64,000 nt of DNA from positions 7,396-71,395 of the forward strand of contig CAMCXT010000008.1 of the NCBI GenBank assembly GCA_945883545.1. The letters run 5' to 3'. Both the position numbers and the translations under genes were made by a program. The stretch is from Chitinophaga pinensis (GTDB lineage: Bacteria; Bacteroidota; Bacteroidia; M30B66). The notes under the pieces are model-generated. The model saw only the letters and a list, made by a program, of their open reading frames with translations. It did no database searches and had not been told where the DNA came from. Shown one piece after another: positions 1,116-59,342 of this stretch (the stretch's first letter is position 1; the number at the start of each line of letters is the position of its first letter).

Positions 1116-1538
1116 TTAGATTGATTCTTTTAGCCTTTCAATCAAACGAGCTCCAAGCCAAGCGCATGGGATATATGCAAATACAAGATCAATAACATTA
1201 AACCACATTGGTGCTGGTAAAATACACACCATCCAAATTCCACCAAAAAGGAATACAAAACCAATCACCAAAGCTAATTTTAATTGATTGTTTACCGCAA
1301 TTAAAGCTGCTAATATGGCCCCGCTTAATGTACCTAATGCATGTGCTAAAAAAGGGAAAATAAAATGTTTAGGCTCTAGGAAGGGCATCGATGCTTTCAA
1401 GCCTGCTTCAGTAGTTAGATCAAAACCTTCTGGTGGAGGAATAATTGAACCCGATATATTGATCAGGCTCATGTTAACGATACCTCCAACAAAAACCCCA
1501 ACTAAAACAGCAAGTATATTTCTAATGATTGATTTCAT
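1116..1538 (-). CDS. Small integral membrane protein (about 4 TM), unknown function
   Basis: 140-aa ORF with hydrophobic helices. The antisense ORF 1288-1557 was rejected. Confidence 0.6.
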   Translation of the reverse strand: MKSIIRNILAVLVGVFVGGIVNMSLINISGSIIPPPEGFDLTTEAGLKASMPFLEPKHFIFPFLAHALGTLSGAILAALIAVNNQLKLALVIGFVFLFGGIWMVCILPAPMWFNVIDLVFAYIPCAWLGARLIERLKESI

Positions 1539-1656: not shown

Positions 1657-2288
1657 ATTTAATTTATCCGTCTCAAGCCGATTATAATCGATTATATCCG
1701 TTTAAAACCGGATAACCATCTCTTTTTTCTTTTCCTTGCAACGGGGAGGGGTTGATGGTGTTCCCAACAAAAAATTCAAACCATGGTCAAGTAAAAAGTA
1801 TCAACAAGTGCTGTGAATTCTAAACTCTCCGCTTTAGCAATATTATCCAATTGCATAAATCTTCAACCAGCAACTCAAACCACAACTTGATTTAATTTAT
1901 CCGTCTCAAGCCGATTATAATCGATTATATCCGTTTAAAATCGGATAATCATCTCTTTTTTCTTTTCCTTGCAACGGGGAGGGGCCGATGGTGTTCCTAA
2001 TAAAAAAAATTCAAACCACTGTCAAGCAAAAAGTATCAACAAGTGCTGTGAATTCTAAACTCTCCGCTTTATCAATATTATCCAATTGCATAAATCTTTA
2101 ACCAGCAACTCAAACCACAACTTGATTTAATTTATCCGTCTCAAGCCGATTATAATCGATTATATCCGTTTAAAATCGGATAACCATCTCTTTTTTCTTT
2201 TCCTTGCAACGGGGAGGGGCCGATGGTGTTCCCAACAAAAAAACAAAACCACTGTCAAGCAAAAAGTATCAACAAGTGCAGTGAATTC
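1657..2288. repeat. Tandem array 1: three head-to-tail copies (period 233/235 bp) of a non-coding element; the last copy has the ~164-nt core only
   Basis: Units start at 1657, 1890 and 2125 with ATTTAATTTATCCGTCTCAAGCCG and are near identical. No conserved ORF. Confidence 0.92.
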
Positions 2289-2366: not shown

Positions 2367-3794
2367 GTGAATATCCTACATATTGCTGCAGAATGCTATC
2401 CAGCCGCTAAAGCAGGCGGATTAGGCGATGTTGTTGGCGCATTACCCAAATACCTCAATCAAGCTGGACACAAAGCCGCTGTGCTCATTCCTGGTTACCG
2501 ACAAAAATGGATCATCAACCAGCCTTTCGAACACATTTGGAGCGGACTCGTTCGCTTGGGCGACATTAAAATCCCCGTACATATTCGCCGCCACACTGGC
2601 GATTCACTTGGTTTCGAATTACTCATCGCTGATATTCCTGGTCTTTTCGATCGTGAAGGAATCTACACCGATCCGCAATCTGGCTTTGGTTATTCCGATG
2701 AAACCGAGCGATATATTGTATTTCAGCAATGTGCCTTGCAGTATATCCAATCGCTCGACCAAAAGCCCAATGTTATTCATTGCCACGATCACCACACAGG
2801 ACTCATTCCCTTTATGGTGAAACATTGCCCTGAATTCAGAAACCTTTCCCACATTCCTGCCATTTTCACCATCCACAATGGAGTATATCATGGTTCTTTC
2901 GGATGGTCAAAAGCCTGGATACTCCCATGGTATGATGCCGATGCCAACGGACTCCTCGATTGGGCCGGAAATATCAATCCGCTAGCTTGCGGCATCAAAT
3001 GCTGCTGGAAACTCACAACCGTTTCTCCTGGATATTTGCTAGAGTTGCTAGCGTCTTCAAATGGTCTTGAATGGCTTATTAGAAACGAATTGCCTAAATC
3101 GCAAGGCATTCTCAACGGTATCGATACTCAGGTTTGGGACCCCGAATCAGATCCACTCATCGAAAACCGATTTTACAACGATATCAGCAGGTTTAAGTCA
3201 GACAACAAAGCCGTTCTCAGGAAACGTTTCGACATTCATGCCGATCAACCGCTCATCACTTTTATCGGTCGCTTGGTAGCGGAAAAAGGAGCCGATCTCC
3301 TGCCTGATGCCATTGCAAAATTCCTCCACGAAGGTGGAAAAGCCTCATTTGTAGTGCTTGGAACTGGCGATCCAAATCTAAAAGATGCCTTTCTTACCAT
3401 GAAGCATCATTTTACCTCTTGGTTCGATACTTCCATCGAATACAACGAAGCTCTTTCACATCAACTCTACGCTGGAAGCGACTTCCTTGTAATGCCTTCC
3501 CGAGTTGAACCTTGCGGACTAAATCAACTCTACGCTTTCCGATATGGTACTATCCCAATCGTTAGGGCTACAGGCGGTTTAGCAGATACTGTTACAGATG
3601 TTTCACAACCAAACGGAAATGGAATTCGATTCGACCACTTCTCAGTGGATGCCCTTGCCGCAAGTTTTCATCGAGCCACTGCAGTTTATCATCATCCTGA
3701 AGCCATGAACCAACTTCGAGCACACAACATGAGTCTCGATTATAGCTGGGAAAAAGCAGCCAATTCATACATTCATATATATCAAAGCACATAA
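2367..3794 (+). CDS. glgA: Glycogen synthase (ADP-glucose type)
   Basis: ILHIAAECYPAAKAGGLGDVVGALPK N-terminal motif and full-length GT5-like sequence. The ORF opens at TTG 2316; GTG 2367 fits the family N-terminus better. Confidence 0.9.
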   Translation: MNILHIAAECYPAAKAGGLGDVVGALPKYLNQAGHKAAVLIPGYRQKWIINQPFEHIWSGLVRLGDIKIPVHIRRHTGDSLGFELLIADIPGLFDREGIYTDPQSGFGYSDETERYIVFQQCALQYIQSLDQKPNVIHCHDHHTGLIPFMVKHCPEFRNLSHIPAIFTIHNGVYHGSFGWSKAWILPWYDADANGLLDWAGNINPLACGIKCCWKLTTVSPGYLLELLASSNGLEWLIRNELPKSQGILNGIDTQVWDPESDPLIENRFYNDISRFKSDNKAVLRKRFDIHADQPLITFIGRLVAEKGADLLPDAIAKFLHEGGKASFVVLGTGDPNLKDAFLTMKHHFTSWFDTSIEYNEALSHQLYAGSDFLVMPSRVEPCGLNQLYAFRYGTIPIVRATGGLADTVTDVSQPNGNGIRFDHFSVDALAASFHRATAVYHHPEAMNQLRAHNMSLDYSWEKAANSYIHIYQST

Positions 3795-3799
3795 CATTT

Positions 3800-5080
3800 A
3801 TGAGCGCAATTATTAAAATGGTATGCCTGATTTTAGGCGGTGGACAAGGAAGCAGATTGTATCCTCTTACATCAAGTCGATCAAAACCTGCCGTTCCAAT
3901 TGGAGGGAAATACCGTCTCATCGATATCCCAATTTCAAACTGTATCAATTCTGGCGTTCGCCGGATGTTTGTCCTTACTCAGTTCAACTCCGCGTCGCTG
4001 AACCGACACATCAAAAATACCTATCAATTCGATAGCTTCAGTCCAGGATTTGTGGATATCCTTGCTGCTGAACAAACACCCGGTTCCGACAAATGGTTCC
4101 AAGGAACAGCCGATGCGGTGCGCCAAAGCATGCATCACCTCAGTTCACATGAGTACGATTATGTACTTATTCTGAGCGGTGATCAACTGTACCAGATGGA
4201 TTTTAAGCAAATGGCCGAATTCCACATTTCACAAAAAGCGGATCTCACCATAGCCACAATTCCAGTGGTAGCTAAGGAAGCCTCCGAATTCGGAATCATG
4301 AAAGTGGATAAAAAAGGATACATCAGCTCATTCATCGAAAAACCAGCTGCTCCACTCCTACCCGACTGGACTTCCCCCGTCCAAAACACACTCAAGAAAA
4401 AAGGTCGCGAATACCTCGCTTCTATGGGTATCTATATTTTCAAAAAAGAAGCACTCGAGAAACTGTTCGAAGATCATCCCGACGCAACCGACTTTGGGAA
4501 AGCCATCATCCCTGCTGCAATTCAATCAGGATATAGTGTTGCTTCATACCAATTTGATGATTATTGGACCGACATCGGAAATATCCGCTCCTTCTATGAA
4601 GCAAATTTGGAACTGTGTGGAGATATCCCTCGGTACAATTTGTTCGATAACCACAAACGCGTTTTTACACGCTCTCGCGCATTGGCTCCATCGAAATTCT
4701 TCGGAACAAGACTCAACAAATCGATCGTGGCCGAAGGATGCATCATTCATGCTAAACTAATCGATTACAGCCTGATCGGAATCCGTTCAAGAATTGGTGC
4801 CAAAACAGTGGTAAAAAATTCAATTGTGATGGGAAATGACTTCTATCAAACGCTCGAAGAAATCGTCCACAAGAAGGGCGAAATCCATGTTGGAATTGGT
4901 AAAAATTGCCACATCGAACAAGCCATCATCGACAAAGATTGCCGCATCGGCGACAACGTAGTGATCAAAGGAGGCGATCATCTTCAAAATATTGAAACCG
5001 AAATGTATTGCATTGTTGATGGAATCATTGTGGTGAAGAAAAAAGCAATCATCCCAAGTGGGTCGAAAATCGGCGCATAG
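3800..5080 (+). CDS. glgC: Glucose-1-phosphate adenylyltransferase
   Basis: LILGGGQGSRLYPLT...SKPAVPIGGKYRLIDIPISNC motif, 426 aa, directly downstream of glgA. Confidence 0.93.
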   Translation: MSAIIKMVCLILGGGQGSRLYPLTSSRSKPAVPIGGKYRLIDIPISNCINSGVRRMFVLTQFNSASLNRHIKNTYQFDSFSPGFVDILAAEQTPGSDKWFQGTADAVRQSMHHLSSHEYDYVLILSGDQLYQMDFKQMAEFHISQKADLTIATIPVVAKEASEFGIMKVDKKGYISSFIEKPAAPLLPDWTSPVQNTLKKKGREYLASMGIYIFKKEALEKLFEDHPDATDFGKAIIPAAIQSGYSVASYQFDDYWTDIGNIRSFYEANLELCGDIPRYNLFDNHKRVFTRSRALAPSKFFGTRLNKSIVAEGCIIHAKLIDYSLIGIRSRIGAKTVVKNSIVMGNDFYQTLEEIVHKKGEIHVGIGKNCHIEQAIIDKDCRIGDNVVIKGGDHLQNIETEMYCIVDGIIVVKKKAIIPSGSKIGA

Positions 5081-5138: not shown

Positions 5139-5157
5139 TGTTGAAATTGATTTGGGT

Positions 5158-6075
5158 ATGAAGTTGATTAAAAGTCTATTGATTTTCCTCCCGTTGCTGA
5201 TTCTTGCATCTTGCGGTAACACAGCTAACCCTAGCGGGGGAAAGAAAAAGATCGTAGTAACCACCGGCATGGTAGGTGATGCTGTAAAAAACCTTGTTGG
5301 CGATATCGCAGAAGTGGAAGTTCTGATGGGTGCTGGAGTAGATCCTCACCTGTACAAAGCTTCCCAGGGCGACATGGAAAAGCTCTCGAAAGCCGATATA
5401 ATCGTTTACAACGGTCACCATTTGGAAGGTAAAATGACAGAGGTGTTCGAAAAAATGCGTCGCAACAAGCCTGTTATTCCATTGGCAGAACTTGTTCATG
5501 AAAACCGCTACCAGCGTGCGCAAGAAGGCAGCAATATGATTGATCCACATATCTGGATGGACATCAAATCGTGGTCAACTGGAATTAGCAATCTCCGGGA
5601 AGATCTTATCGATCTATTCCCTAACGATTCGGCAAAGATTGAAAGCAACCACGACCAATATCAAAAGGAGCTCATCAAAACAGATTACCAAATTGAGCTC
5701 TTGATAGGTTCAATACCAACAAACCAAAGGGTAATCATTACCTCGCACGATGCATTTCGATATTTTGGATTGAATTATGGCATCGAAGTGAAAGGCTTAC
5801 AAGGCGTTTCAACTGTTTCCGAATATGGGCTGCGCGATGTAAGCGATATGGTGAATTTCATTGTGAACCGAAAAATCAAAGCTGTGTTCGTTGAAAGTTC
5901 AGTTTCGGATAAATCATTGCAAGCCGTGATTGAAGGATGCGCAAAAAAAGGCCATCAAGTGGTAATTGGAGGAAAGCTACACTCTGATGCCCTCGGAGCA
6001 GAAGGAACGCCCGAAGGTACTTACTGCGGAATGCTGCTTCACAATGCCCGAACAATCCAAAAAGCCCTGAAATAA
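5158..6075 (+). CDS. Metal (Mn/Zn/Fe) ABC transporter substrate-binding lipoprotein, ZnuA/TroA family
   Basis: Lipobox LILASCGN. DPHLY...DPHIW...SHDAF motifs typical of cluster A-I SBPs. Confidence 0.85.
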   Translation: MKLIKSLLIFLPLLILASCGNTANPSGGKKKIVVTTGMVGDAVKNLVGDIAEVEVLMGAGVDPHLYKASQGDMEKLSKADIIVYNGHHLEGKMTEVFEKMRRNKPVIPLAELVHENRYQRAQEGSNMIDPHIWMDIKSWSTGISNLREDLIDLFPNDSAKIESNHDQYQKELIKTDYQIELLIGSIPTNQRVIITSHDAFRYFGLNYGIEVKGLQGVSTVSEYGLRDVSDMVNFIVNRKIKAVFVESSVSDKSLQAVIEGCAKKGHQVVIGGKLHSDALGAEGTPEGTYCGMLLHNARTIQKALK

Positions 6076-6077
6076 GC

Positions 6078-6866
6078 ATGATCATCAACGTTCAGGATCC
6101 TTCGCTCGAAGCACACAATCTCACAGTTATTTACCACAGGAAACCAGTACTTTGGAACATCGATTTTTCCCTTCCCAAAGGTGAAATCATCGGAATCATG
6201 GGACCAAACGGCGCGGGCAAATCAACCCTCATCAAAGCCATTCTCGAACTCGCTCCATTGAATTCTGGATATTCAAAAATCTTCGGAAAATCCCTAAACG
6301 AAGTACGAAAGAAAGTAAGCTATATCCCACAACGTCAAACCATTGATTGGGATTTCCCCGCATCCGTCTCCGATGTAGTCATGATGGGAAGATACCCTTC
6401 ATTAGGGCTCTTTAAACGCATCACCAAAAGCGACCGCGAAATCGTGCGCCTTGCACTCGAACAGGTGAACATGACCGAATACGCCAATCGTCAAATTTCA
6501 CAGCTTTCAGGTGGCCAACAACAGCGCGTGTTTTTAGCTCGTGCCTTAGCTCAACAGGCAGATTTGTATTTATTGGATGAACCTTTTGTAGGTGTCGACG
6601 CATCCACCGAGGCAGCTATCATGCAACTGCTTCGAACCATGAAAAACGAAGGCAAAACCATTGTTGTAGTCCACCACGATTTGCACACAGCTGCCGAATA
6701 TTTCAATTGGTTGGTGCTCATCAATGCTTCACTCATTGCAAGCGGCCCTACCGAAAAAGTTTTCACCGACGAACTTCTTCGAAACACCTACAGCGGCAAA
6801 CTTACCGTGCTATCACAAGTGGGCGATGTAATGCGTGAACAGAATTTCCCGGTGCGCGAAAAATGA
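6078..6866 (+). CDS. Metal ABC transporter ATP-binding protein
   Basis: Walker A GPNGAGKST, signature LSGGQQQR, Walker B LYLLDEP. Confidence 0.9.
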   Translation: MIINVQDPSLEAHNLTVIYHRKPVLWNIDFSLPKGEIIGIMGPNGAGKSTLIKAILELAPLNSGYSKIFGKSLNEVRKKVSYIPQRQTIDWDFPASVSDVVMMGRYPSLGLFKRITKSDREIVRLALEQVNMTEYANRQISQLSGGQQQRVFLARALAQQADLYLLDEPFVGVDASTEAAIMQLLRTMKNEGKTIVVVHHDLHTAAEYFNWLVLINASLIASGPTEKVFTDELLRNTYSGKLTVLSQVGDVMREQNFPVREK

Positions 6867-8161
6867 CCTCAGATCAATTTATCGGATTTTTACTTCTCGA
6901 AGAGCCCAACGTTCGGATGGTCGTTGCAGGAACACTTTTGCTCTGCGGAATGGCAGCATTGGTAGGCTGTTTCACCTTTCTTAGGAAACGTTCATTAGTA
7001 GGTGATGCCGTTTCTCACAGCGTGCTGCCAGGAATTTGCATGGCGTTCCTCCTCAGTGGAGAAAAAAATCCAATCATCTTGCTTCTTGGTGCTTTAGCAA
7101 CAGGATTACTTTCGCTGATTTTGATGGAAGTCTTAAGTAGAAACAGACTCACACGACCTGATACTGCTATTTCATTGATGCTTTCGTTTTTCTTCGGATT
7201 GGGCATTCTTTTACTCACCTACATTCAACACCAAGGAAATGCAGCACAGGCAGGACTCGACAAATTCATTTTCGGCAAAGCAGCATCAATCACTGAAGCC
7301 GATTTAAGGCTATTTCTTTTCTCAGGAATATTCATCACTGCTTCTGTAGCAATCTTATTAAGAGGATTTTACTTGATTTCCTTCGATGAGGATTTTGCAC
7401 GTGCAACTGGATTCCCCATCAAGTTCTTGAGACTATCGTTGTCGGTACTTACCGTGTGGACTGTCGCCATTGGTATTCAAGCAGTTGGAGTGGTTTTAAT
7501 GGCTGCTTTGCTCATCACGCCTGCTCTTGCGGCTCGCTTTTGGACCCATTCGATTGGGAGGATGCTTGTTATTGCTGCCCTTTTCGGGATGATTGCAGGT
7601 TATACCGGATCGTTTGTTTCTTACCTAGCTCCAGCCATGCCAACCGGCCCGTGGATAGTTGTAATGGCGACTTTCATTGCCATTGTATCGATGTTTCTTG
7701 CTCCTGGCAGAGGATTGTTGGCACGTTGGAACACCCGAAGTAAAAACCGAGAAAAAACACTGTTGGAGAATATCCTGAAACTCTTCTACCAAATCGGTGA
7801 AAAGTCAGGGCAATTGCAAGGAAACATCCTTGAAGAAGATCTCCTCAACCATCGAGCATTTGGGCACGATGAACTTCGTAAAGGATTGAAACGGTTAACC
7901 TCCAAAAATCTTCTGGAATCGAACCTGCTAACTTATCGCCTCACCAACCAAGGATTGCTAGAAGCACAAAGAATCGTTCGCTTACACCGCTTGTGGGAGT
8001 TGTACTTACAACGTTATCTGCACCTTGAACCTGATCATGTGCACGATGATGCTGAAGCGATGGAGCACGTGATCACTCCTGAAATCGAAGCCCAACTGGA
8101 GCTCATTCTCGGCAATCCAGAAACAGATCCTCACAATACCATTATTCCTCCGAAGGCATGA
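6863..8161 (+). CDS. Metal ABC transporter permease (ABC-3 family) fused to a C-terminal DtxR/MntR-like repressor domain
   Basis: About 285 aa of TM permease, then ...RLTNQGLLEAQRIVRLHRLWELYL...HVHDDAEAMEHVITPE...DPHNTIIP, i.e. the DtxR-family wHTH end plus metal-binding/dimerisation motifs. ATGA overlap with the ATPase gene. Confidence 0.85.
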   Translation: MTSDQFIGFLLLEEPNVRMVVAGTLLLCGMAALVGCFTFLRKRSLVGDAVSHSVLPGICMAFLLSGEKNPIILLLGALATGLLSLILMEVLSRNRLTRPDTAISLMLSFFFGLGILLLTYIQHQGNAAQAGLDKFIFGKAASITEADLRLFLFSGIFITASVAILLRGFYLISFDEDFARATGFPIKFLRLSLSVLTVWTVAIGIQAVGVVLMAALLITPALAARFWTHSIGRMLVIAALFGMIAGYTGSFVSYLAPAMPTGPWIVVMATFIAIVSMFLAPGRGLLARWNTRSKNREKTLLENILKLFYQIGEKSGQLQGNILEEDLLNHRAFGHDELRKGLKRLTSKNLLESNLLTYRLTNQGLLEAQRIVRLHRLWELYLQRYLHLEPDHVHDDAEAMEHVITPEIEAQLELILGNPETDPHNTIIPPKA

Positions 8162-36835: not shown

Positions 36836-37891
36836 TTAAGATTCTTTTGAGGTAACGTAGGTAGGCTGCAAATTAGCGTCGCTGTATTGCTTCATATAAT
36901 CCATCGATTCATCAACCATAGCAGAAGAACCAATAAATAGAGAACAACGCTGGTGAATATCGGTTGGCTGAATTTCCAAAATATCTCTAAATCCGTCTGT
37001 AGCCTTACCACCTGCTTGTTCAACGATCATCGCCATTGGGTTGCATTCATACATCAAACGCAATTTACCTTTTGGAGACGACAATGTAGTTGGATAAATA
37101 TAAATTCCACCTTTAATTAAATTCCTGTGGAAATCGCTAACCAAAGAACCAATATACCTTAAGGTATAAGGCTTTTTGTTGGCCTTATCATCAATTTGCA
37201 AATTCTTTATATAACGTTTTACTCCTTCAGGAAAATGAACGAAATTACCTTGATTTACAGAATAAATATTTCCTCCTTTTGGAATTCTCATGTCAGGATG
37301 TGACAAACAAAATTCCCCGATTGAAGGGTCCAACGTAAATCCATTTACCCCGTTTCCAGTGGTATAAACGAGCATTGTCGACGAACCATAAACAATATAA
37401 CCGGCTGCAACTTGGTCGGAACCATATTGTAAAAAATCATCAACTGTTGCAGGTCCATTTTTTGTTTTCCTACGGTAAATTGAAAATATTGTACCTACAG
37501 ATACATTCACATCGATATTTGAAGATCCATCCAATGGATCCATCGCAACAATATATCGCCCAGAAGAGGCATTCCCATCAAAAAGAATAATTTCATCATT
37601 CTCTTCAGATGCAACTCCAGCACATTCTCCACCTGAAGCCAATGCAGCTAAAAACTGTTCATTGGCAAAAACATCAAGCTTTTTCTGCGATTCTCCTTGA
37701 ATATTTTCCGACCCCGCTTCTCCTAGAATATTAACCAATCCAGCTTTATTTACTTCACGGTTTACTATTTTTGCGGCGATACTAATATCACTCAATAAAC
37801 TCGACAATTCGCCCTTGGCATAAGGAAAATCTGCTTGTTTATCAATGATGAACTCACCGAGAGTTACCAAATTGCGGTGCGGTCGAATCAT
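36836..37891 (-). CDS. fbp: Fructose-1,6-bisphosphatase class 1
   Basis: ...[24 protein letters not shown]..., ...YSVNQGN..., ...[21 protein letters not shown] motifs. Confidence 0.92.
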
Positions 37892-42970: not shown

Positions 42971-43182
42971 GGTTCAAAGGTATTCATTTGACTAAAAAGC
43001 CGTCGTTGCGCACTTGCAGTTTTAACCCGCATATCTACCCAAATAATTTTAAACGACTCATTTTCTATTATTTACAACAAAATAGCGAATCAAAAGCCCA
43101 AAATCACCAAACCGCCCATTGCCACATTTGCCATCATTGACTACATTTGCGTCATTCATCGACTAGTTATTCGTCAATAAAT

Positions 43183-46119
43183 ATGTTGAACTGTCACTCA
43201 TGGTTTAGTCTACGCTATGGCACCTTATCGCCAGAGCAGCTCATTGCGCAATTGCTTGAGCTTGGCTATACGAGTGCGGCATTAACCGACATCAACACAA
43301 CCTCAGGATGCCTCGATTTTGTGCGCATCTCGAATGAGATGGGCCTACATCCTGTAATTGGCGTAGAGTTTCGCGATGATGGATTGCTCCAGTTTGTTGC
43401 TCTAGCGATTAATAATGATGGATTTGAGCTGATCAATCGGCATTTGTCGTCGAAACTTACTGAAGGAGCAACCCTAGCAGCCGAAGCTCCAGAACAATGG
43501 AATGGGCACGTTTGGGTGATTTATCCTTTGAAGAACATTCCCAAAAGAAAACTGTTTCCCAACGAATTCATAGGTCTTAGCCTTCAAGATTTGAAAAGTG
43601 TATGGAAGCCTAGAGATCCGATCCTCAACAGAGCAGTAGTTTTACAAGCATTTACCTTTCCCGACAAAGCGCATAACAATATCCATAGGCTATTGCGAGC
43701 GATCGATCAAAATACTTTACTGAGCTTACTCGACCCTCTGCAATGTGCCGCGCCTGATGCCTTTTTACTTCCACGAAAAGACCTTGTGTCTGCTTTTTCG
43801 TCATTCCCTGAAGTCATCGCGCGCAGTTTGCAGTTGCTAGAATCTTGCAATGTAGAATTTGAGTTTGGCGTATCAAAAAACCGAAAAACCTTTACTGGAT
43901 CTAAGGTGCAAGACAGGCAACTTCTCGAGAAACTAAGTTTGGATGGCATGCAATATCGTTACGGCAAGAAGAACAAAGAAGCCCAGAAAAGATTGAAGCA
44001 TGAGTTGGAGGTGATTGATAAATTAGGCTTCACACCCTATTTTCTGATCACTGAAGACATCATCCGCTATGCTCGACACCGAGGATTTTTCCATGTTGGA
44101 AGAGGGAGCGGCGCCAATAGCATTGCGGCTTACTGCTTACAAATTACGGATGTTGACCCCATCGAATTGGACCTATATTTTGAGCGATTCATCAATCCGC
44201 ACCGCACATCGCCGCCCGATTTCGATCTCGATTTTTCGTGGCGCGACCGTGATGAAATTTTGAATTACATATTTCAGCGATACGGCACCGAACATACTGC
44301 TCTAATTGCGACTTACACAACTTTCCAAGACAGGGCCGTTATTCGAGAATTGGGCAAGGTGTTCGGGTTGCCGAAATCGGAAATCGACATTCTCAGCGGA
44401 CTCAAGCAACTCCCCAAAGATGCAGATCAAATTAGCCGATTGATCTTTCGTTACGGTGAAAAAATCCATGGCTTCCCTAATCATTTGGGCATCCATGCAG
44501 GCGGAGTGATCATTTCAGAGTCGCCCATTTATCGATATACCGCCACCCAAATGCCTCCCAAGGGCTTGCCCATTACACAATTCGACATGTATGTTTCGGA
44601 AGAAGTGGGCTTATATAAATACGATATATTAAGTCAGCGCGGATTGGGACACATTCGAGAAGCCACCGAATTGATTCTCGAAAACAGGCAAATCAGTGTG
44701 GATATCCACCGGGTTTCGGAATTCAAAAAGGACTTGAAAATCAAACAGCTCATAAAGACAGGTCGAACAATGGGCTGTTTCTATGTTGAATCACCCGCGA
44801 TGCGGATGTTGTTAAGTAAACTAAAATGTGAAGATTATATCACACTGGTTGCGGCAAGCTCAATTATTCGACCGGGAGTTGCGAAATCCGGTATGATGAG
44901 AGAATACATCCACCGTTTTCACCATCCAGGAAGCTTCAGCTACATCCACCCAAAGATGGAAGAGCTCCTCAAAGAAACCTATGGGGTTATGGTTTACCAG
45001 GAGGATGTAATTAAGGTAGCGCATCATTTTGCAGGGCTAGATCCTGCCGATGCCGATATATTGCGCAGAGGAATGTCGGGGAAATTCAGGTCGGCGAAAG
45101 CCTTCCAACTCGTTGCAGATAAATTCATGCAAAACTGCCGCGATATGGGCTATCCCGAAGCGGTTTACACCGAGGTTTGGCGACAAATGGAGAGCTTTTC
45201 GGGGTATTCGTTTTCTAAAGCGCATTCTGCCTCTTTTGCCGTAGAAAGTTTTCAGAGTCTATATCTGAGAGCACATTTTCCACTGGAATTTATGACTGCC
45301 GTATTGAACAACTTCGGTGGATTTTACAAAACACAAGATTATGTGCATGAGGCACGCATGCTTGGTGCTAAAATCGAGGCGCCTTGCGTGAACAGAAGCA
45401 TGCACTTAAACAGCATTTTCGACGATTCAATATACTTAGGTTTTGTGCTTCTGCACCAGCTCGAGGAGCGGAGTTCTGCCATGATTCTCCGCGCTCGAGC
45501 GCAGAGTGGGCCCTTTCTTGGACTTGCTGATTTTGTTTCGCGCGTTAACATTGGTTTGGAACAAGTCCTTATTCTGATTCGTGTTGGAGCCTTTCGATTC
45601 ACCAGTAAACCCAAAAAAGAACTGCTTTGGGATGCACATCTTATTGTAAACAAAACAAGTGTGAAGGTGGAAAAGCCAGCACAGCTATTTCATGCCAATG
45701 AGCCAGATTACAAATTCCCAAACTTAGAAGACTCGTTTATTGAAAATGCATACGATGAGATCGAATTATTGGGATTTCCATTGTGCTCTCCATTCGATCT
45801 AATTGCCCCAACGAAAGATGAATCGATTCGAGCCAAAGAATTATGCAACAACTTAGGGAAACAGGTGCAGATTCTTGGTAGCGTGGTGGCAGTAAAAGAC
45901 ACTCGAACGGTGAAAGGCGAACGAATGAACTTTGCCACATTTGTAGATCAGGATGGCTATTTCTTCGACAGTACACATTTTCCACAAGTGGTAAAACAGT
46001 CGCCTTTCCGAGGCCGCGGCATTTATCGCCTGAAAGGAAAAGTTGCTTGTGAGTTTGGCTTCTTCAGTCTCGAGGCAAGTTACATGGAAAAGATCCCTTA
46101 CCTCGCAAGGGGATATTGA
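43183..46119 (+). CDS. dnaE2: DNA polymerase III alpha-subunit homologue, short DnaE2/ImuC-like form
   Basis: N-terminal PHP motif (LNCHSWFSLRYG), ...GRGSGANS..., ...PPDFDLDF..., ...GIHAGGV..., ...FSKAHSASFA. About 978 aa, so it lacks the long DnaE1 C-terminus. Confidence 0.8.
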   Translation: MLNCHSWFSLRYGTLSPEQLIAQLLELGYTSAALTDINTTSGCLDFVRISNEMGLHPVIGVEFRDDGLLQFVALAINNDGFELINRHLSSKLTEGATLAAEAPEQWNGHVWVIYPLKNIPKRKLFPNEFIGLSLQDLKSVWKPRDPILNRAVVLQAFTFPDKAHNNIHRLLRAIDQNTLLSLLDPLQCAAPDAFLLPRKDLVSAFSSFPEVIARSLQLLESCNVEFEFGVSKNRKTFTGSKVQDRQLLEKLSLDGMQYRYGKKNKEAQKRLKHELEVIDKLGFTPYFLITEDIIRYARHRGFFHVGRGSGANSIAAYCLQITDVDPIELDLYFERFINPHRTSPPDFDLDFSWRDRDEILNYIFQRYGTEHTALIATYTTFQDRAVIRELGKVFGLPKSEIDILSGLKQLPKDADQISRLIFRYGEKIHGFPNHLGIHAGGVIISESPIYRYTATQMPPKGLPITQFDMYVSEEVGLYKYDILSQRGLGHIREATELILENRQISVDIHRVSEFKKDLKIKQLIKTGRTMGCFYVESPAMRMLLSKLKCEDYITLVAASSIIRPGVAKSGMMREYIHRFHHPGSFSYIHPKMEELLKETYGVMVYQEDVIKVAHHFAGLDPADADILRRGMSGKFRSAKAFQLVADKFMQNCRDMGYPEAVYTEVWRQMESFSGYSFSKAHSASFAVESFQSLYLRAHFPLEFMTAVLNNFGGFYKTQDYVHEARMLGAKIEAPCVNRSMHLNSIFDDSIYLGFVLLHQLEERSSAMILRARAQSGPFLGLADFVSRVNIGLEQVLILIRVGAFRFTSKPKKELLWDAHLIVNKTSVKVEKPAQLFHANEPDYKFPNLEDSFIENAYDEIELLGFPLCSPFDLIAPTKDESIRAKELCNNLGKQVQILGSVVAVKDTRTVKGERMNFATFVDQDGYFFDSTHFPQVVKQSPFRGRGIYRLKGKVACEFGFFSLEASYMEKIPYLARGY

Positions 46120-46581
46120 AAAGTATAAAGCAGCCAGCTTAAGAAACGGTGATTCATAAAAATCATAGCAATGTAAAGGTATTGATTTCGCAAAGCGATT
46201 TTTGGGTTGATTATACCTGTCGATACAATTGAATTTTGTCAATTTCGATTTTCGAAAATACTTTATCAGACAACAATTAATAGGTTTGTCATTACTTCGG
46301 AGAATTTATCGAGTATAATACTTCAAATAAAACAAGTTAAATCCATTTTTTTCTGCAAATAAAAGTTGGCTTGTAAAAAACTTTCAATCATCTCAGAGGA
46401 TTTAAAATTCATATTCAATCAACAATTAACGCATAAATAAATACCGATATTAGGCAATCTTAAAAGCTCTAACAAAAGAAATATGAGAACTTTTAAACGC
46501 AAAATAAACAAGGTTATAAACAGAACTGTTTGTAATAAAAAAACAAGACTGTTTAAGGTATTTCTCATTTAACGAAATTTG

Positions 46582-46956
46582 CACTGGGAAGGGGATAGAT
46601 GCGGGTTCCCTTCGACAATTCAAAATAACTTGTCAAGTGAAAAATGAGAAAAGAAATCAACACGACTGTTAATTCTAATTTGATCATTCAATTCGATAGT
46701 GTTTAATTAAACCCGAACTTTCCACTGGGAAGGGGATAGATGCGGGTTCCCTGCGACAATTCAAAATAACTTGTCAAGTGAAAAAAGGAGAAAAGAAATC
46801 AACACGACTGTTAATTCTAATTTGATCATTCAATTCGATGGTATTTAACTAAATCCGAACTTTCAACTGGGAATGGGATAGATGCGGGTTCCCTTCGACA
46901 ATTCAAAATAATTTGTCAACTGGAAAATGAGAAAATAAATCAACACGACTGTTATT
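46582..46956. repeat. Tandem array 2: three copies (period 141 bp) of a non-coding element related to the core of array 1; the last copy has the core only
   Basis: Cores start at 46582, 46723 and 46864 (CACTGGGAAGGGGATAGATGCGGGTTCCC...). The linkers are also conserved. A degenerate partial copy may lie just upstream. Confidence 0.92.
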
Positions 46957-47108
46957 GGTAATGGCAATAATGACGAGCAGGTTGTGTATTCAATTATATT
47001 TTACTAGACTAGAAAATAATCTTAAAATAAAAGTAATGAGAAAAGTCAGCAAATCAATGTCATAGGCTCTTGTAATGTTGAACTCAATGTCATACCTTAG
47101 ACAAAGAG

Positions 47109-47879
47109 ATGAAAGGATTTCAAATCACAAGCAAAAAATACTTTGACGATTCTATGTCATTGATTGGCAATGAAATAGATAATCTAGTCAGTAGATTTGA
47201 TTTCAAATACAAAGACTTAGATCTTGGCTATCAAACTCAGTCTTCGGCTGTTTATTCTTCAAACATTGAAGGAAATACAATTGATTTGAATTCATTCATG
47301 AATTTCAAATTATCAAATGAAAAATTTAAACCCAGTAAAGAAATAAAAGAAATTGAAGACCTAATTCTTGCATACGATTTTGCTCAGAAAGAGATCTTAA
47401 ACCAGAAAAACTTCCTTAAAATTCATAAAATTCTATCTGAAACACTATTAATATCGAGTTTAAGAGGTAAGTATAGAAATGATAAAGTTGGAGTTTTTAG
47501 CGAGTCTGGATTAGTCTACTTTGCTATAGAATCTGAATTTCTAAAAGAAACTATGAATGAGTTATTTTCAGAAATCGGAGAAATTTTATCAAGTAATTTA
47601 AGCATTGAAGAAGTTTTTTATTTCGCATCACTTATTCACATGAAGTTTGTTCACATCCACCCATTTAGAGAAGGAAATGGTAGAACTGCAAGAATTCTTG
47701 AAAAATGGTTTATTACAACAAAACTTGGCGAAGAATTTTGGAAACTACCTTCTGAAAAGTATTATAAAGAAAAACAAGCTGATTATTACAGAAATCTAAA
47801 TTTAGGAGTGAATTATTATGAGTTGAATTATGACAAATGCTTGCCTTTTTTAACTATGCTGCCAAACTGCATGAAATAA
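47109..47879 (+). CDS. Fic-family protein (class II type with internal inhibitory motif)
   Basis: Fic motif HPFREGNGRTAR. N-terminal SSNIEG fits the [ST]xxxE[GN] inhibitory-helix motif. Confidence 0.88.
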   Translation: MKGFQITSKKYFDDSMSLIGNEIDNLVSRFDFKYKDLDLGYQTQSSAVYSSNIEGNTIDLNSFMNFKLSNEKFKPSKEIKEIEDLILAYDFAQKEILNQKNFLKIHKILSETLLISSLRGKYRNDKVGVFSESGLVYFAIESEFLKETMNELFSEIGEILSSNLSIEEVFYFASLIHMKFVHIHPFREGNGRTARILEKWFITTKLGEEFWKLPSEKYYKEKQADYYRNLNLGVNYYELNYDKCLPFLTMLPNCMK

Positions 47880-49454: not shown

Positions 49455-49647
49455 CTCGGACTAAAGTCCGAGGCTGCGAGGAGTCCGAGGCAGCATGGAA
49501 TCCGAGGCAGCTAAGAGAAAACACAAACCTATAAAATGATCACCAACACACCCTGCAACCACGGACTTTAGTCCGTGGAAACATGGAAACAAGAACTTGT
49601 GCATTTTAAAATGGTCGCAATCGCAACCACGGTCTTTAGTCCGTGGA
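49455..49647. repeat. REP-like palindromic element cluster 1 (three full copies plus two half-sites)
   Basis: CCTCGGACTAAAGTCCGAGG (49455-49474). CCACGGACTTTAGTCCGTGG (49560-49579) and CCACGGTCTTTAGTCCGTGG (49628-49647) are in the opposite orientation. Half-sites (A)GTCCGAGGCAGC lie at ~49483 and ~49500. Confidence 0.85.
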
Positions 49648-53276: not shown

Positions 53277-53350
53277 GGCGGGGTAGCTCAGATGGTTAGA
53301 GCGCAGGATTCATAACCCTGAGGTCACGGGTTCAACTCCCGTCCCCGCTA
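53277..53350 (+). tRNA. tRNA with CAT anticodon (elongator Met, or Ile2 if lysidine-modified)
   Basis: Hand-folded 74-nt cloverleaf: GGCGGGG/CCCCGCT acceptor (G1-U72), D arm GCTC-AGATGGTTA-GAGC, anticodon loop TTCATAA, T arm ACGGG-TTCAACT-CCCGT. The paired 1-72 position argues against an initiator. Confidence 0.85.
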
Positions 53351-59240: not shown

Positions 59241-59275
59241 CGTATTTCGTAATTCGTATTTCGTATTTCGTATTT
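59241..59275. repeat. Heptanucleotide microsatellite (CGTATTT/CGTAATT) x5
   Basis: CGTATTT CGTAATT CGTATTT CGTATTT CGTATTT, flanked by the 10-bp inverted repeat GTACAACGTA (59235-59244) / TACGTTGTAC (59301-59310). Confidence 0.85.
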
Positions 59276-59342
59276 CGCTTATTCACAACGTTGTAATTAA
59301 TACGTTGTACGTTGCACCTATTTAGCTAATACGATCATTCAT

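Follow-up and report, generated by a model that had tools for sequence, protein, structure and literature searches.

The stretch of DNA analysed here (the window) comprises 64,000 nucleotides of a contig deposited as Chitinophaga pinensis (GenBank assembly GCA_945883545.1, contig CAMCXT010000008.1, positions 7,396 to 71,395 of the forward strand). Near its beginning, the region 1539-2366 is non-coding and separates a gene for a membrane-like protein of 140 residues from glgA, the gene for glycogen synthase. Three head-to-tail repeat units (array A) are situated in this region upstream of glgA, and a related array (array B) is found further downstream in the same window. The repeated modules are an undescribed conserved non-coding family, which occurs in a few freshwater Flavobacteriales in the form of short tandem arrays. 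The family is real, conserved and outside the described families, and several rival models of its mechanism are considered below. Each core of a module consists of two blocks with a spacer between them and a 3' tail. The features are as follows.

1657..2288, plus strand: array A, units 1657-1889, 1890-2124 and 2125-2288 (Tandem Repeats Finder, unit alignment)
1665..1711, also 1898-1944 and 2133-2179, plus strand: Block I, five CpG at exact 10-nt spacing, YCGNTTAWAW four to five times, including the palindrome CGATTATAATCG
1712..1731, also 1945-1964 and 2180-2199, plus strand: spacer, 20-22 nt in every subtype, sequence not conserved
1732..1775, also 1965-2010 and 2200-2243, plus strand: Block II, TTCCTTGCARC GGGGAGGGG YYGAT GGTGTTCCC AAC and an A-run
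1743..1765, also 1976-1998 and 2211-2233, plus strand: Shine-Dalgarno (SD)-like two-part complement of the 16S rRNA tail, with ATG 5 nt past GGAGG
1776..1820, also 2011-2055 and 2244-2288, plus strand: 3' tail of the core, with an A-rich stretch, (T)TGTCAAG, ATCAACAAGTG and the inverted repeat AATTCAAACCACT/AGTGCTGTGAATT
1821..1889 and 2056-2124, plus strand: linkers 1 and 2, specific to array A, with nothing in common with the linkers of other arrays
46573..46960, plus strand: array B, 2.7 units of 142 bp, related to array A (Tandem Repeats Finder, alignment, hidden Markov model hits)
46586-46610, 46727-46751 and 46869-46893, plus strand: Block II' copies in array B
2367..3794, plus strand: glgA, co-oriented with array A and downstream of it (Pfam Glyco_transf_5, homologues)
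3800-5080: glgC, following glgA (Pfam NTP_transferase)
1116..1538, minus strand: gene of the 140-residue membrane-like protein, divergent, upstream of array A (list of open reading frames)
47109-47879: Fic-domain gene, 150 nt downstream of array B (Pfam Fic)

Tandem Repeats Finder reports array A at 1657-2288 with a period of 235, 2.7 copies and 94% matches, and alignment of the three units confirms that they start at 1657, 1890 and 2125. The layout core-linker-core-linker-core, which had been proposed in a preliminary description of this DNA made from its letters alone, is thereby borne out, as is the end of the third unit at 2288: the similarity of unit 3 stops at about 2288-2290, after ...GTGAATTC at 2288. 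The gap before glgA, which the same description gave as 750 bp, needs to be corrected. The mechanically predicted reading frame of glgA starts at TTG 2316, but both the conserved N-terminal sequence MNILHIAAE and the start called in a homologue with 99% identity favour GTG 2367. This is most likely the true start, and the gap is therefore about 830 nt long. A weak -7-like box, ATGGTTTG, is seen at about 2328-2335, between the last core and the glgA start. The gene at 1116-1538 has no Pfam match and is syntenic in two related loci (L002 and L094; loci are numbered with the prefix L).

Array B was reported by Tandem Repeats Finder at 46573-46954, with a period of 142 and 2.7 copies. It has no Block I and shares the 3' half of the array A core (YGGGRAGGGG, GTTCCC, AATTCAAAA, TGTCAAG, ATCAACA and CTGTKAATTC), terminating at the core position homologous to the end of array A. 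A gene of 990 residues with PHP and Pol III alpha domains (43147-46119) lies about 450 nt upstream. The window as a whole contains six copies of the module, all inside the two arrays. A composite core pattern matches the window four times (0 expected), in arrays A and B alone, and GGGRAGGGG matches it five times (0.18 expected). A chance origin of the repeats is excluded.

The family is wider than was visible to the preliminary description. Homologous arrays of 1-4 units are present at at least three loci in related uncultured Flavobacteriales, with about 2-4 loci per genome. A scan of GTDB, one genome per species, with a pattern of the core blocks gave 26 loci, which is about the chance expectation; five of them are clearly real. 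These are the syntenic glgA array of three units (L002) and a second array (L003) in the Flavobacteriales metagenome-assembled genome (MAG) EUL_048, four units of 160 bp (L008) and a B-type array (L021) in MAG RE-26jul17-123, and a single copy in Flavobacterium silvaticum (L001). A second pattern, GGGGAGGGGNNNNTNGTGTTCCC, gave 64 matches and three more real loci, all from metagenomes (L074, L081 and L079). Two pattern scans of viral contigs gave chance matches alone, and the plasmid and phage collections contained no match to the module.

The number of units varies even between closely related strains. L094 (GCA_964913165.1), whose GlgA is 99% identical, carries two units before glgA, compared to three in the window and in L002, and its last core differs from the window in 7 of 24 positions of the 3' tail. 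In relatives with 74% and 69% GlgA identity, the gap before glgA is 133 nt and 87 nt long, respectively, and contains no element. At the second locus, the gene order is extracytoplasmic function (ECF) sigma factor, anti-sigma factor, array and rpe, and this arrangement is syntenic in about seven genomes. The array at this locus has one unit in L106, two in L081 and L102, three in L003 and L097, and four in L008 and L103 (L104 is identical), with unit periods of 155-298 nt; in L103 two core subtypes are mixed. Several Logan contigs (L098-L101 and L105) end 45-85 nt past the anti-sigma gene, exactly at the start of the array. As these short-read contigs stop there, the arrays evidently break assemblies, and the copy numbers taken from MAGs may therefore be too low.

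The third locus holds a diverged single copy (...CCTGGGGAGGAGGTTGGAGGCCCCCAAAAAAAG), which is conserved in L097 (19474-19560), L103 (19975-20063) and L102 (about 19241), where its neighbours are a DUF1905/OmdA gene on one side and an SprB-like gene on the other, both encoded on the opposite strand. The F. silvaticum contig has a lone Block II copy at 1466-1512, in which TTG replaces ATG; it is located about 390 nt upstream of a gene that by eye resembles the Fur family and is followed by one resembling adenylosuccinate synthetase (purA), also by eye. On the metagenome contig L079, a similar single copy abuts the 3' end of a convergent gene. The arrays have the same orientation as glgA, as rpe (in about seven genomes) and as fic; the single-type copies and the copy of L079 are not upstream of a co-oriented gene.

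To gauge selection on the core, 27 A-type cores were aligned and compared between two genome groups whose rpe genes are 30-48% identical at fourfold-degenerate sites. The identities are given below.

Block I (47 nt): 86% between genome groups
Spacer (20-22 nt, indels of at most 1 nt): 41% overall between genome groups, 27-52% between subtypes
Block II (44 nt): 92% between genome groups, columns nearly invariant
3' tail: about 60% between genome groups or subtypes

The conservation of the core is far above the neutral expectation. Because Blocks I and II are 86% and 92% identical while fourfold-degenerate sites are only 30-48% identical, the element is functional and not junk. Purifying selection acts on two blocks separated by a spacer that is constrained in length, its length being kept and its sequence not. 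Such a block-spacer-block pattern points to what would be two functional parts at a set distance from each other. It rules out junk duplication and is hard to reconcile with recent spread alone. The preliminary description spoke of a "multi-copy structured RNA, not junk satellite DNA"; the element is indeed multi-copy, non-coding, conserved and not junk, but a structured RNA finds no support in covariation or folding, as described below.

Block I contains CpG at unit positions 13, 23, 33, 43 and 53, which correspond to four or five 10-bp repeats YCGNTTAWAW. In the alignment of 27 cores, the first two of these 10-mers often change together (ATT/ATT, TTT/TTT and TGT/TGT). The motifs of Block I occur nowhere else in the window, and the palindrome pattern CGATTATAATCG is likewise confined to the array. 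With its 10-bp phasing and fixed-length spacer, Block I looks like a sequence that is recognised as DNA by a protein. At the rpe locus, the stop codon of the anti-sigma gene lies 10-20 nt before Block I, so that the promoter for an RNA that included Block I would lie inside the upstream gene. Block I and the fixed spacer would fit a control region upstream of a transcription start site near the beginning of Block II.

Block II, GGGGAGGGG-CCGAU-GGUGUUCC, is complementary in two parts to the 3' tail of Bacteroidia 16S rRNA and contains an AUG at SD spacing. The 16S rRNA of Flavobacterium johnsoniae ends in GGAACACCUCCUUUCU, as is confirmed by a published oligonucleotide ending in ...AGAAAGGAGGTGTTCC (PMC13000453); the tail is given as ACCUCCUUUCU in PMC7797042. 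With RNAduplex, all 16 nucleotides of GGAACACCUCCUUUCU are paired in two stretches of 8 bp, which flank a 5-nt bulge containing the AUG, and four of the pairs are G.U. The calculated energies are as follows.

A type and F. silvaticum type: -20.9 kcal/mol
Single type, 10 consecutive pairs: -17.4 kcal/mol
B type: -15.9 kcal/mol
Degenerate copy of L106: -13.9 kcal/mol
Shuffled Block II: -8.8 +/- 2.7 kcal/mol, with 0 of 2000 reaching -20.9

For duplex formation with the tail, the A cores rank 1-3 among all 28-nt stretches on both strands of the window, and wherever a related locus has an intact core of the A or silvaticum type, this core is the top match. An E. coli-type tail gives only -14.6 kcal/mol. 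The minus strand was also considered as an RNA mimicking the 16S tail and was rejected, as it pairs with an ideal extended SD at -14.6 kcal/mol, compared to -20.9 for the plus strand and the tail. In Flavobacteriales, strong SD sequences are typically limited to rpsU according to an analysis of annotated genes only (PMC9976891), and 13-14 nt of the 16S tail are paired in the rpsU initiation complex (PMC13000457). No rpsU was found in the window or in the related loci searched. The complementarity of Block II to the tail is an observation; that it serves an interaction with the ribosome is a prediction.

The repeat architecture, the presence of the family at several loci, the variation in copy number and the lack of a conserved open reading frame (ORF) are direct observations. 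They can be combined into a tentative model, quite possible although far from assured, in which the modules are tandemly amplified small transcription units, each comprising a control region, a promoter and a short RNA, read from the plus strand, whose 5' part is SD-like. Each core of about 135-165 nt would then be a small autonomous module that has been amplified in tandem. Block I with its 10-bp-phased CCG repeats would be a protein-binding control region acting as DNA, and would be followed by the spacer with its fixed length of 20-22 nt. The invariant TTCCTTGCAGC would form the promoter-proximal region, after which the short plus-strand RNA would begin. The conserved 5' part of this RNA would be purine-rich and SD-like (GGGGAGGGG-CCGAU-GGUGUUCC), and might either close as a GGGGA/UUCCC hairpin (GGGGA(N13)UUCCC, the alternative fold of the segment at 1743..1765) or pair with pyrimidine-rich partners, the best candidate being the 16S tail, GGAACACCUCCUUUCU. 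Unequal recombination would cause the arrays to grow and shrink, resulting in 1-4 copies per locus. Transcription, its strand, its start site and a protein partner of Block I are predicted here from sequence features.

The plus strand, which the preliminary description had favoured for the RNA, is the more plausible one. The GGGGA/UUCCC helix contains a G.U pair that would be a C.A mismatch on the opposite strand, and the arrays are co-oriented with the genes downstream; that the strand is transcribed at all is again a prediction. An independent unit, rather than a leader of the downstream gene, is suggested because the single-type copies and the copy of L079 do not precede co-oriented genes and because no array precedes glgA in the relatives with 74% and 69% identity.

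Two known systems resemble such tandem transcription units. In heterocystous cyanobacteria, the 60-nt small RNA (sRNA) NsiR1 is encoded by 12 copies arranged in tandem, and every copy has a 70-nt promoter of its own (PMC4030482), and the multicopy sRNAs LhrC1-5 of Listeria have conserved promoters that respond to a regulator (PMC4132741). As in these systems, short non-coding copies lie head to tail in one intergenic region beside an unrelated gene, every copy has a conserved upstream control sequence, and genomes differ in the number of copies; each unit here carries Block I, spacer and Block II. The dimensions are also similar, the 70-nt promoter and 60-nt RNA of NsiR1 comparing with about 78 nt of Block I and spacer followed by about 60 nt. 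On the other hand, there is no sequence or Rfam relationship to either system, neither a promoter motif nor a terminator was found in the module, and its linkers are specific to each array. The seeds of LhrC are C/U-rich and anti-SD-like, while the putative RNA part of the module is G-rich and SD-like.

An extension of the model, which we consider doubtful, is that the plus-strand RNAs might pair with the normally sequestered 16S 3' tail of Bacteroidia, and that the arrays might act on ribosomes lacking bS21 as sponges, standby sites or SD-dependent mini-cistrons.

A number of observations weigh against the transcription-unit model and its extension. By inspection, no Bacteroidetes promoter (TTTG-N19-TAnnTTTG) is present on either strand of the array, and neither sigma-54 nor ECF promoter motifs are conserved. 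Scans for generic sigma-70 promoters and for terminators gave no result inside the array, and Block II is not followed by a hairpin with a U-run. Array B, having no Block I, shows that the control-region part of the model is not valid for every array. Folding of single units compared to shuffles, on both strands, gave z = -0.65, +0.44, +0.41 and +0.64, and the RNAalifold consensus of 27 cores contains no compensatory pair. No helix is backed by covariation. With a tail of 14 or 13 nt, the A-type score falls to -14.0 or -13.1 kcal/mol and the rank to 7-9 or 15-17, respectively, the score being dependent on pairing to G1529-A1531. The B-type cores are unexceptional in their 16S pairing. Finally, the idea of 16S pairing is post hoc, having been formed from sequence already seen.

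For comparison, the tRNA at 53277 is preceded by TTTG-N19-TATATTTG, and flavobacterial promoter motifs are listed in PMC9723704. A weak match to T(T/A)nnTTG is found 4-6 nt before the G-run in four subtypes. Other candidate DNA signals were examined and rejected. By inspection, a sigma-70-type TTGACA-N17 on the minus strand is not conserved, and of a sigma-54 promoter only the TTGCA is found, the GG at -24 being absent. Of two possible ECF promoters, the one on the minus strand (GGAAC-N16-CGYT) has a varying -10 element (CGCT, CGTT, CAAT or CACT) and a spacer more conserved than its boxes, and the one on the plus strand (AAC-N17-GTC) suffers from a GTCAAG that is degenerate in several last units. 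A terminator role is contradicted by the position of array A between divergent genes and by the lack of a hairpin with a U-run. A DnaA box does not fit either, TTATCCG being three positions off TTATCCACA.

The alternative that survives best, although it is rather unlikely, is that the module functions purely as DNA, as a composite protein-binding site (a promoter/operator, an insulator, or a nucleoid or recombination site), and gives rise to no functional RNA. Such a site would account for the CpG repeats phased at 10 bp and the joint changes of the first two 10-mers, for a spacer that keeps its 20-22 nt without keeping its sequence, for conservation of the primary sequence without covariation, and for the location of arrays in 5' regions, co-oriented with glgA, rpe and fic. 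However, no known promoter motif is present, and rpe keeps its own TACCTTTG box beside its start codon, downstream of the array. Orthologous glgA loci do without the element, and neither the single-type copies nor that of L079 precede a co-oriented gene. Block I is missing from the B type, the Block I motifs are absent from the rest of the window, and a Pfam survey of the neighbours revealed no common regulator gene beside the arrays.

It is also improbable that the module is a selfish or tolerated intergenic repeat, similar to BOX, miniature inverted-repeat transposable elements (MITE) or repetitive extragenic palindromes, without a function selected by the host. The block-spacer-block conservation across saturated synonymous sites indicates purifying selection and not recent spread, and the array at the rpe locus is syntenic in about seven genomes. 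A genome has only about 2-4 loci, terminal inverted repeats and evident target-site duplications are missing, the genes noted next to the arrays include no transposase or recombinase, and no match came from the plasmid or phage collections. What would agree with a selfish repeat is its presence at several unrelated loci and its absence from the orthologous glgA loci of relatives, the copy-number polymorphism between near-identical strains, the mixed core subtypes within arrays (L103) and the breaking of assemblies at the arrays. Pneumococcal BOX elements are modular intergenic repeats with more than 100 dispersed copies and fixed A, B and C modules of 45-59 nt. Like the present family, they are non-coding, have variable tandem sub-units and local hairpins and can affect neighbouring genes. 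The modules differ from them in having 2-4 loci per genome, a core of about 135 nt, array-specific linkers and strong purifying selection across species.

The SD-like segment raises the question of translation. The preliminary description held that no ORF is conserved. This is correct insofar as the ORFs of the three array A units have 22, 37 and 25 codons and different tails, but it overlooks that the ATG after GGAGG is kept in all units: each of them has GGAGG-N5-ATG GTG TTC CC, encoding MVFP.... The segment could thus belong to an SD-led mini-cistron or leader peptide (GGAGG-N5-AUG GUG UUC CC, MVFPTKK...) that is used by ribosomes lacking bS21, as at rpsU, and that would couple the expression of the downstream gene or the loading of ribosomes to ribosome composition. 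We regard this as distinctly improbable. The SD core and an AUG are canonically spaced in all A-type units, the start being ATG in most, GTG in L074 and TTG in L001, and B-type units have an ATG 4 nt past the G-run; yet the start is lost in L106 (ATT TAC), is ATA in L003_3 and L103_3, and is not properly spaced in the single type. The length and tail of the ORF vary from 7 to 37 codons, and in the B type GTTCCC is in another frame. The SD is strong even with a short tail (-12.8 to -16.5 kcal/mol), and a strong SD has been reported for rpsU only (PMC9976891), but coding regions of the window also contain chance sites of similar strength. A mini-cistron would also leave the invariant TTCCTTGCAGC and Block I unexplained.

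The extended SD of rpsU (bS21) in Flavobacteriales is a close known counterpart. It is characterised by 9-13 consecutive pairs, with a published duplex range of -14 to -21 kcal/mol (PMC9976891, PMC13000457); the definition used here was 9-13 consecutive pairs with 16S positions 1532-1544 and a duplex below -13 kcal/mol. The module resembles it in belonging to the same phylum, in its purine-rich complement to much of the 16S tail, in an AUG at SD spacing and, if 16 nt of the tail are counted, in an energy within the rpsU range. The single type reaches 10 consecutive pairs at -17.4 kcal/mol. The A type, in contrast to rpsU, pairs as 8 + 8 with a 5-nt bulge and four G.U pairs, falling to -13 to -14 kcal/mol with a tail of 13-14 nt, and the module precedes no conserved protein and forms tandem arrays at several loci. 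The ORF that follows the SD-like segment has 7-37 codons, with the start absent in L106 and in the single type, and is not a conserved coding gene of the rpsU kind.

Other coding possibilities were rejected. On the plus strand, the MVFP ORF varies in length (7-37 codons), frame and start codon, and on the minus strand a stop codon in L008 interrupts the ORF that runs over Block II. A second ORF of the B type, M(R/K)KE(I/M)N, is without a start codon in B2 and truncated in B3. In the B-type array of L021 (1-560), where the period is 141 nt or 47 codons, an ORF of 98 residues reads through two units; it looks accidental because the B array of the window, with a period of 142, has no such ORF.

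Very unlikely, in our view, is a reading along the lines of the preliminary description, namely a compact RNA that depends on its structure (of the riboswitch, ribozyme or protein-sponge type) and whose hairpins are kept by compensatory change. The elements on which it was built are all present as described: the palindrome CGATTATAATCG, TATCCG-N8-CGGATA, the pyrimidine and purine tracts, ACCATC/GATGGT and the 3' stem, which is an imperfect inverted repeat of up to 13 bp (AATTCAAACCACT/AGTGCTGTGAATT, inverted repeats I15 and I25). The argument that differences between units fall where pairing is kept does not hold, as the three units are 94% identical and carry no statistical weight, and as it fails in the wider family. 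ACCATC and most of the pyrimidine tract are situated in the spacer, whose sequence is not conserved, and even a strain as close as L094 (99% related) does not maintain the 3' stem. The palindrome helix shows one double-sided change, A-U to U-A, in L008-type cores (7 of 27 cells), and is broken in four other lineages (L102, L103_2-4, L106 and L081_1); the long-range pairing CAAG/CTTG shows only uncompensated breaks.

Local hairpins do exist. TTTCAA at the 3' end of Block I pairs with TTGA(AA) at a variable offset in most subtypes, and in the window subtype TATCCG/CGGATA is found instead; the position of the TTTCAA hairpin shifts within the spacer while the length of the spacer remains constant, which speaks against the folded RNA. 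The GGGGA/UUCCC helix is compatible with all four subtypes, having a standard pair in 97-99% of cells with G.U, A-U or G-C as the fourth pair, but its columns are nearly invariant and shuffles attain the observed values. RNAalifold gives -12.2 kcal/mol for 17 cores and -10.2 for 27 cores, for a consensus of about 150 nt; the covariation terms are -0.39 and +0.08, respectively. Given these values, the helix counts and the single-unit folds, which lie at z -0.65 to +0.64 and thus do not differ from shuffles, structure-preserving substitutions are not supported by covariation, and the stems named in the preliminary description lie mostly in non-conserved parts. That it could assign the element to no RNA family agrees with a covariance-model search against Rfam 15: at gathering thresholds, the whole window yields two tRNAs alone, and permissive searches of 1500-2400 and 46400-47100 gave best matches of E=2.2 (12 bits, gathering threshold 100) and E=0.085 (23 bits, threshold 100), respectively.

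Several known classes of repeats can be dismissed. Clustered regularly interspaced short palindromic repeats have repeats of 23-55 bp and unique spacers, whereas the cores here are 135-165 bp long and the linkers of array A are copies of each other with 94% identity. An element derived from a MITE or insertion sequence (IS) does not fit, since there are internal palindromes only, no terminal inverted repeats, and six copies in the window that all lie in two arrays; IS200/605 ends fail as well. TCCCAAC resembles the inverse core site of an integron attC, but by inspection it has no GTTRRRY partner, and no integrase was noted among the Pfam-surveyed neighbours. In type III toxin-antitoxin systems of the ToxI kind, repeats of about 34-46 nt and a terminator are followed by an endoribonuclease toxin (ToxN/AbiQ-type), and Fic is not a type III toxin. 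Array B is similar to these in being a direct-repeat array immediately upstream of, and co-oriented with, a gene of a putative toxin family, the Fic-domain gene. The antitoxin repeats are nevertheless rejected, the units being 142-235 nt long and the other arrays preceding glgA and rpe.

If the modules prove to be regulated sRNA genes, Flavobacteriales, a group with poorly known RNA regulators, would gain some of their first multicopy sRNA arrays, and the strain-variable copy number would provide a simple control by RNA dose. If the complementarity to the 16S tail is functional, the modules would represent a second class of elements dependent on the anti-SD where SD control was thought to be limited to rpsU. 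Bacteroidia ribosomes hide the anti-SD, and scans of annotated genes would miss an unannotated non-coding family with comparable complementarity. The block-spacer-block conservation offers a clean testable element, with what we propose to be a defined DNA half and a defined RNA half.

Two minor observations concern other parts of the window. An operon encoding a ZnuA-like protein, an ATP-binding cassette ATPase and a permease follows directly after glgA-glgC at 5152-8161, and the same order is found in the relative with 74% identity (L095). Other short tandem repeats reported by Tandem Repeats Finder are CGTATTT x5.3 at 59241-59277, a 17-mer x2.8 at 49465-49511 and a 27-mer x2.1 at 37691-37746.

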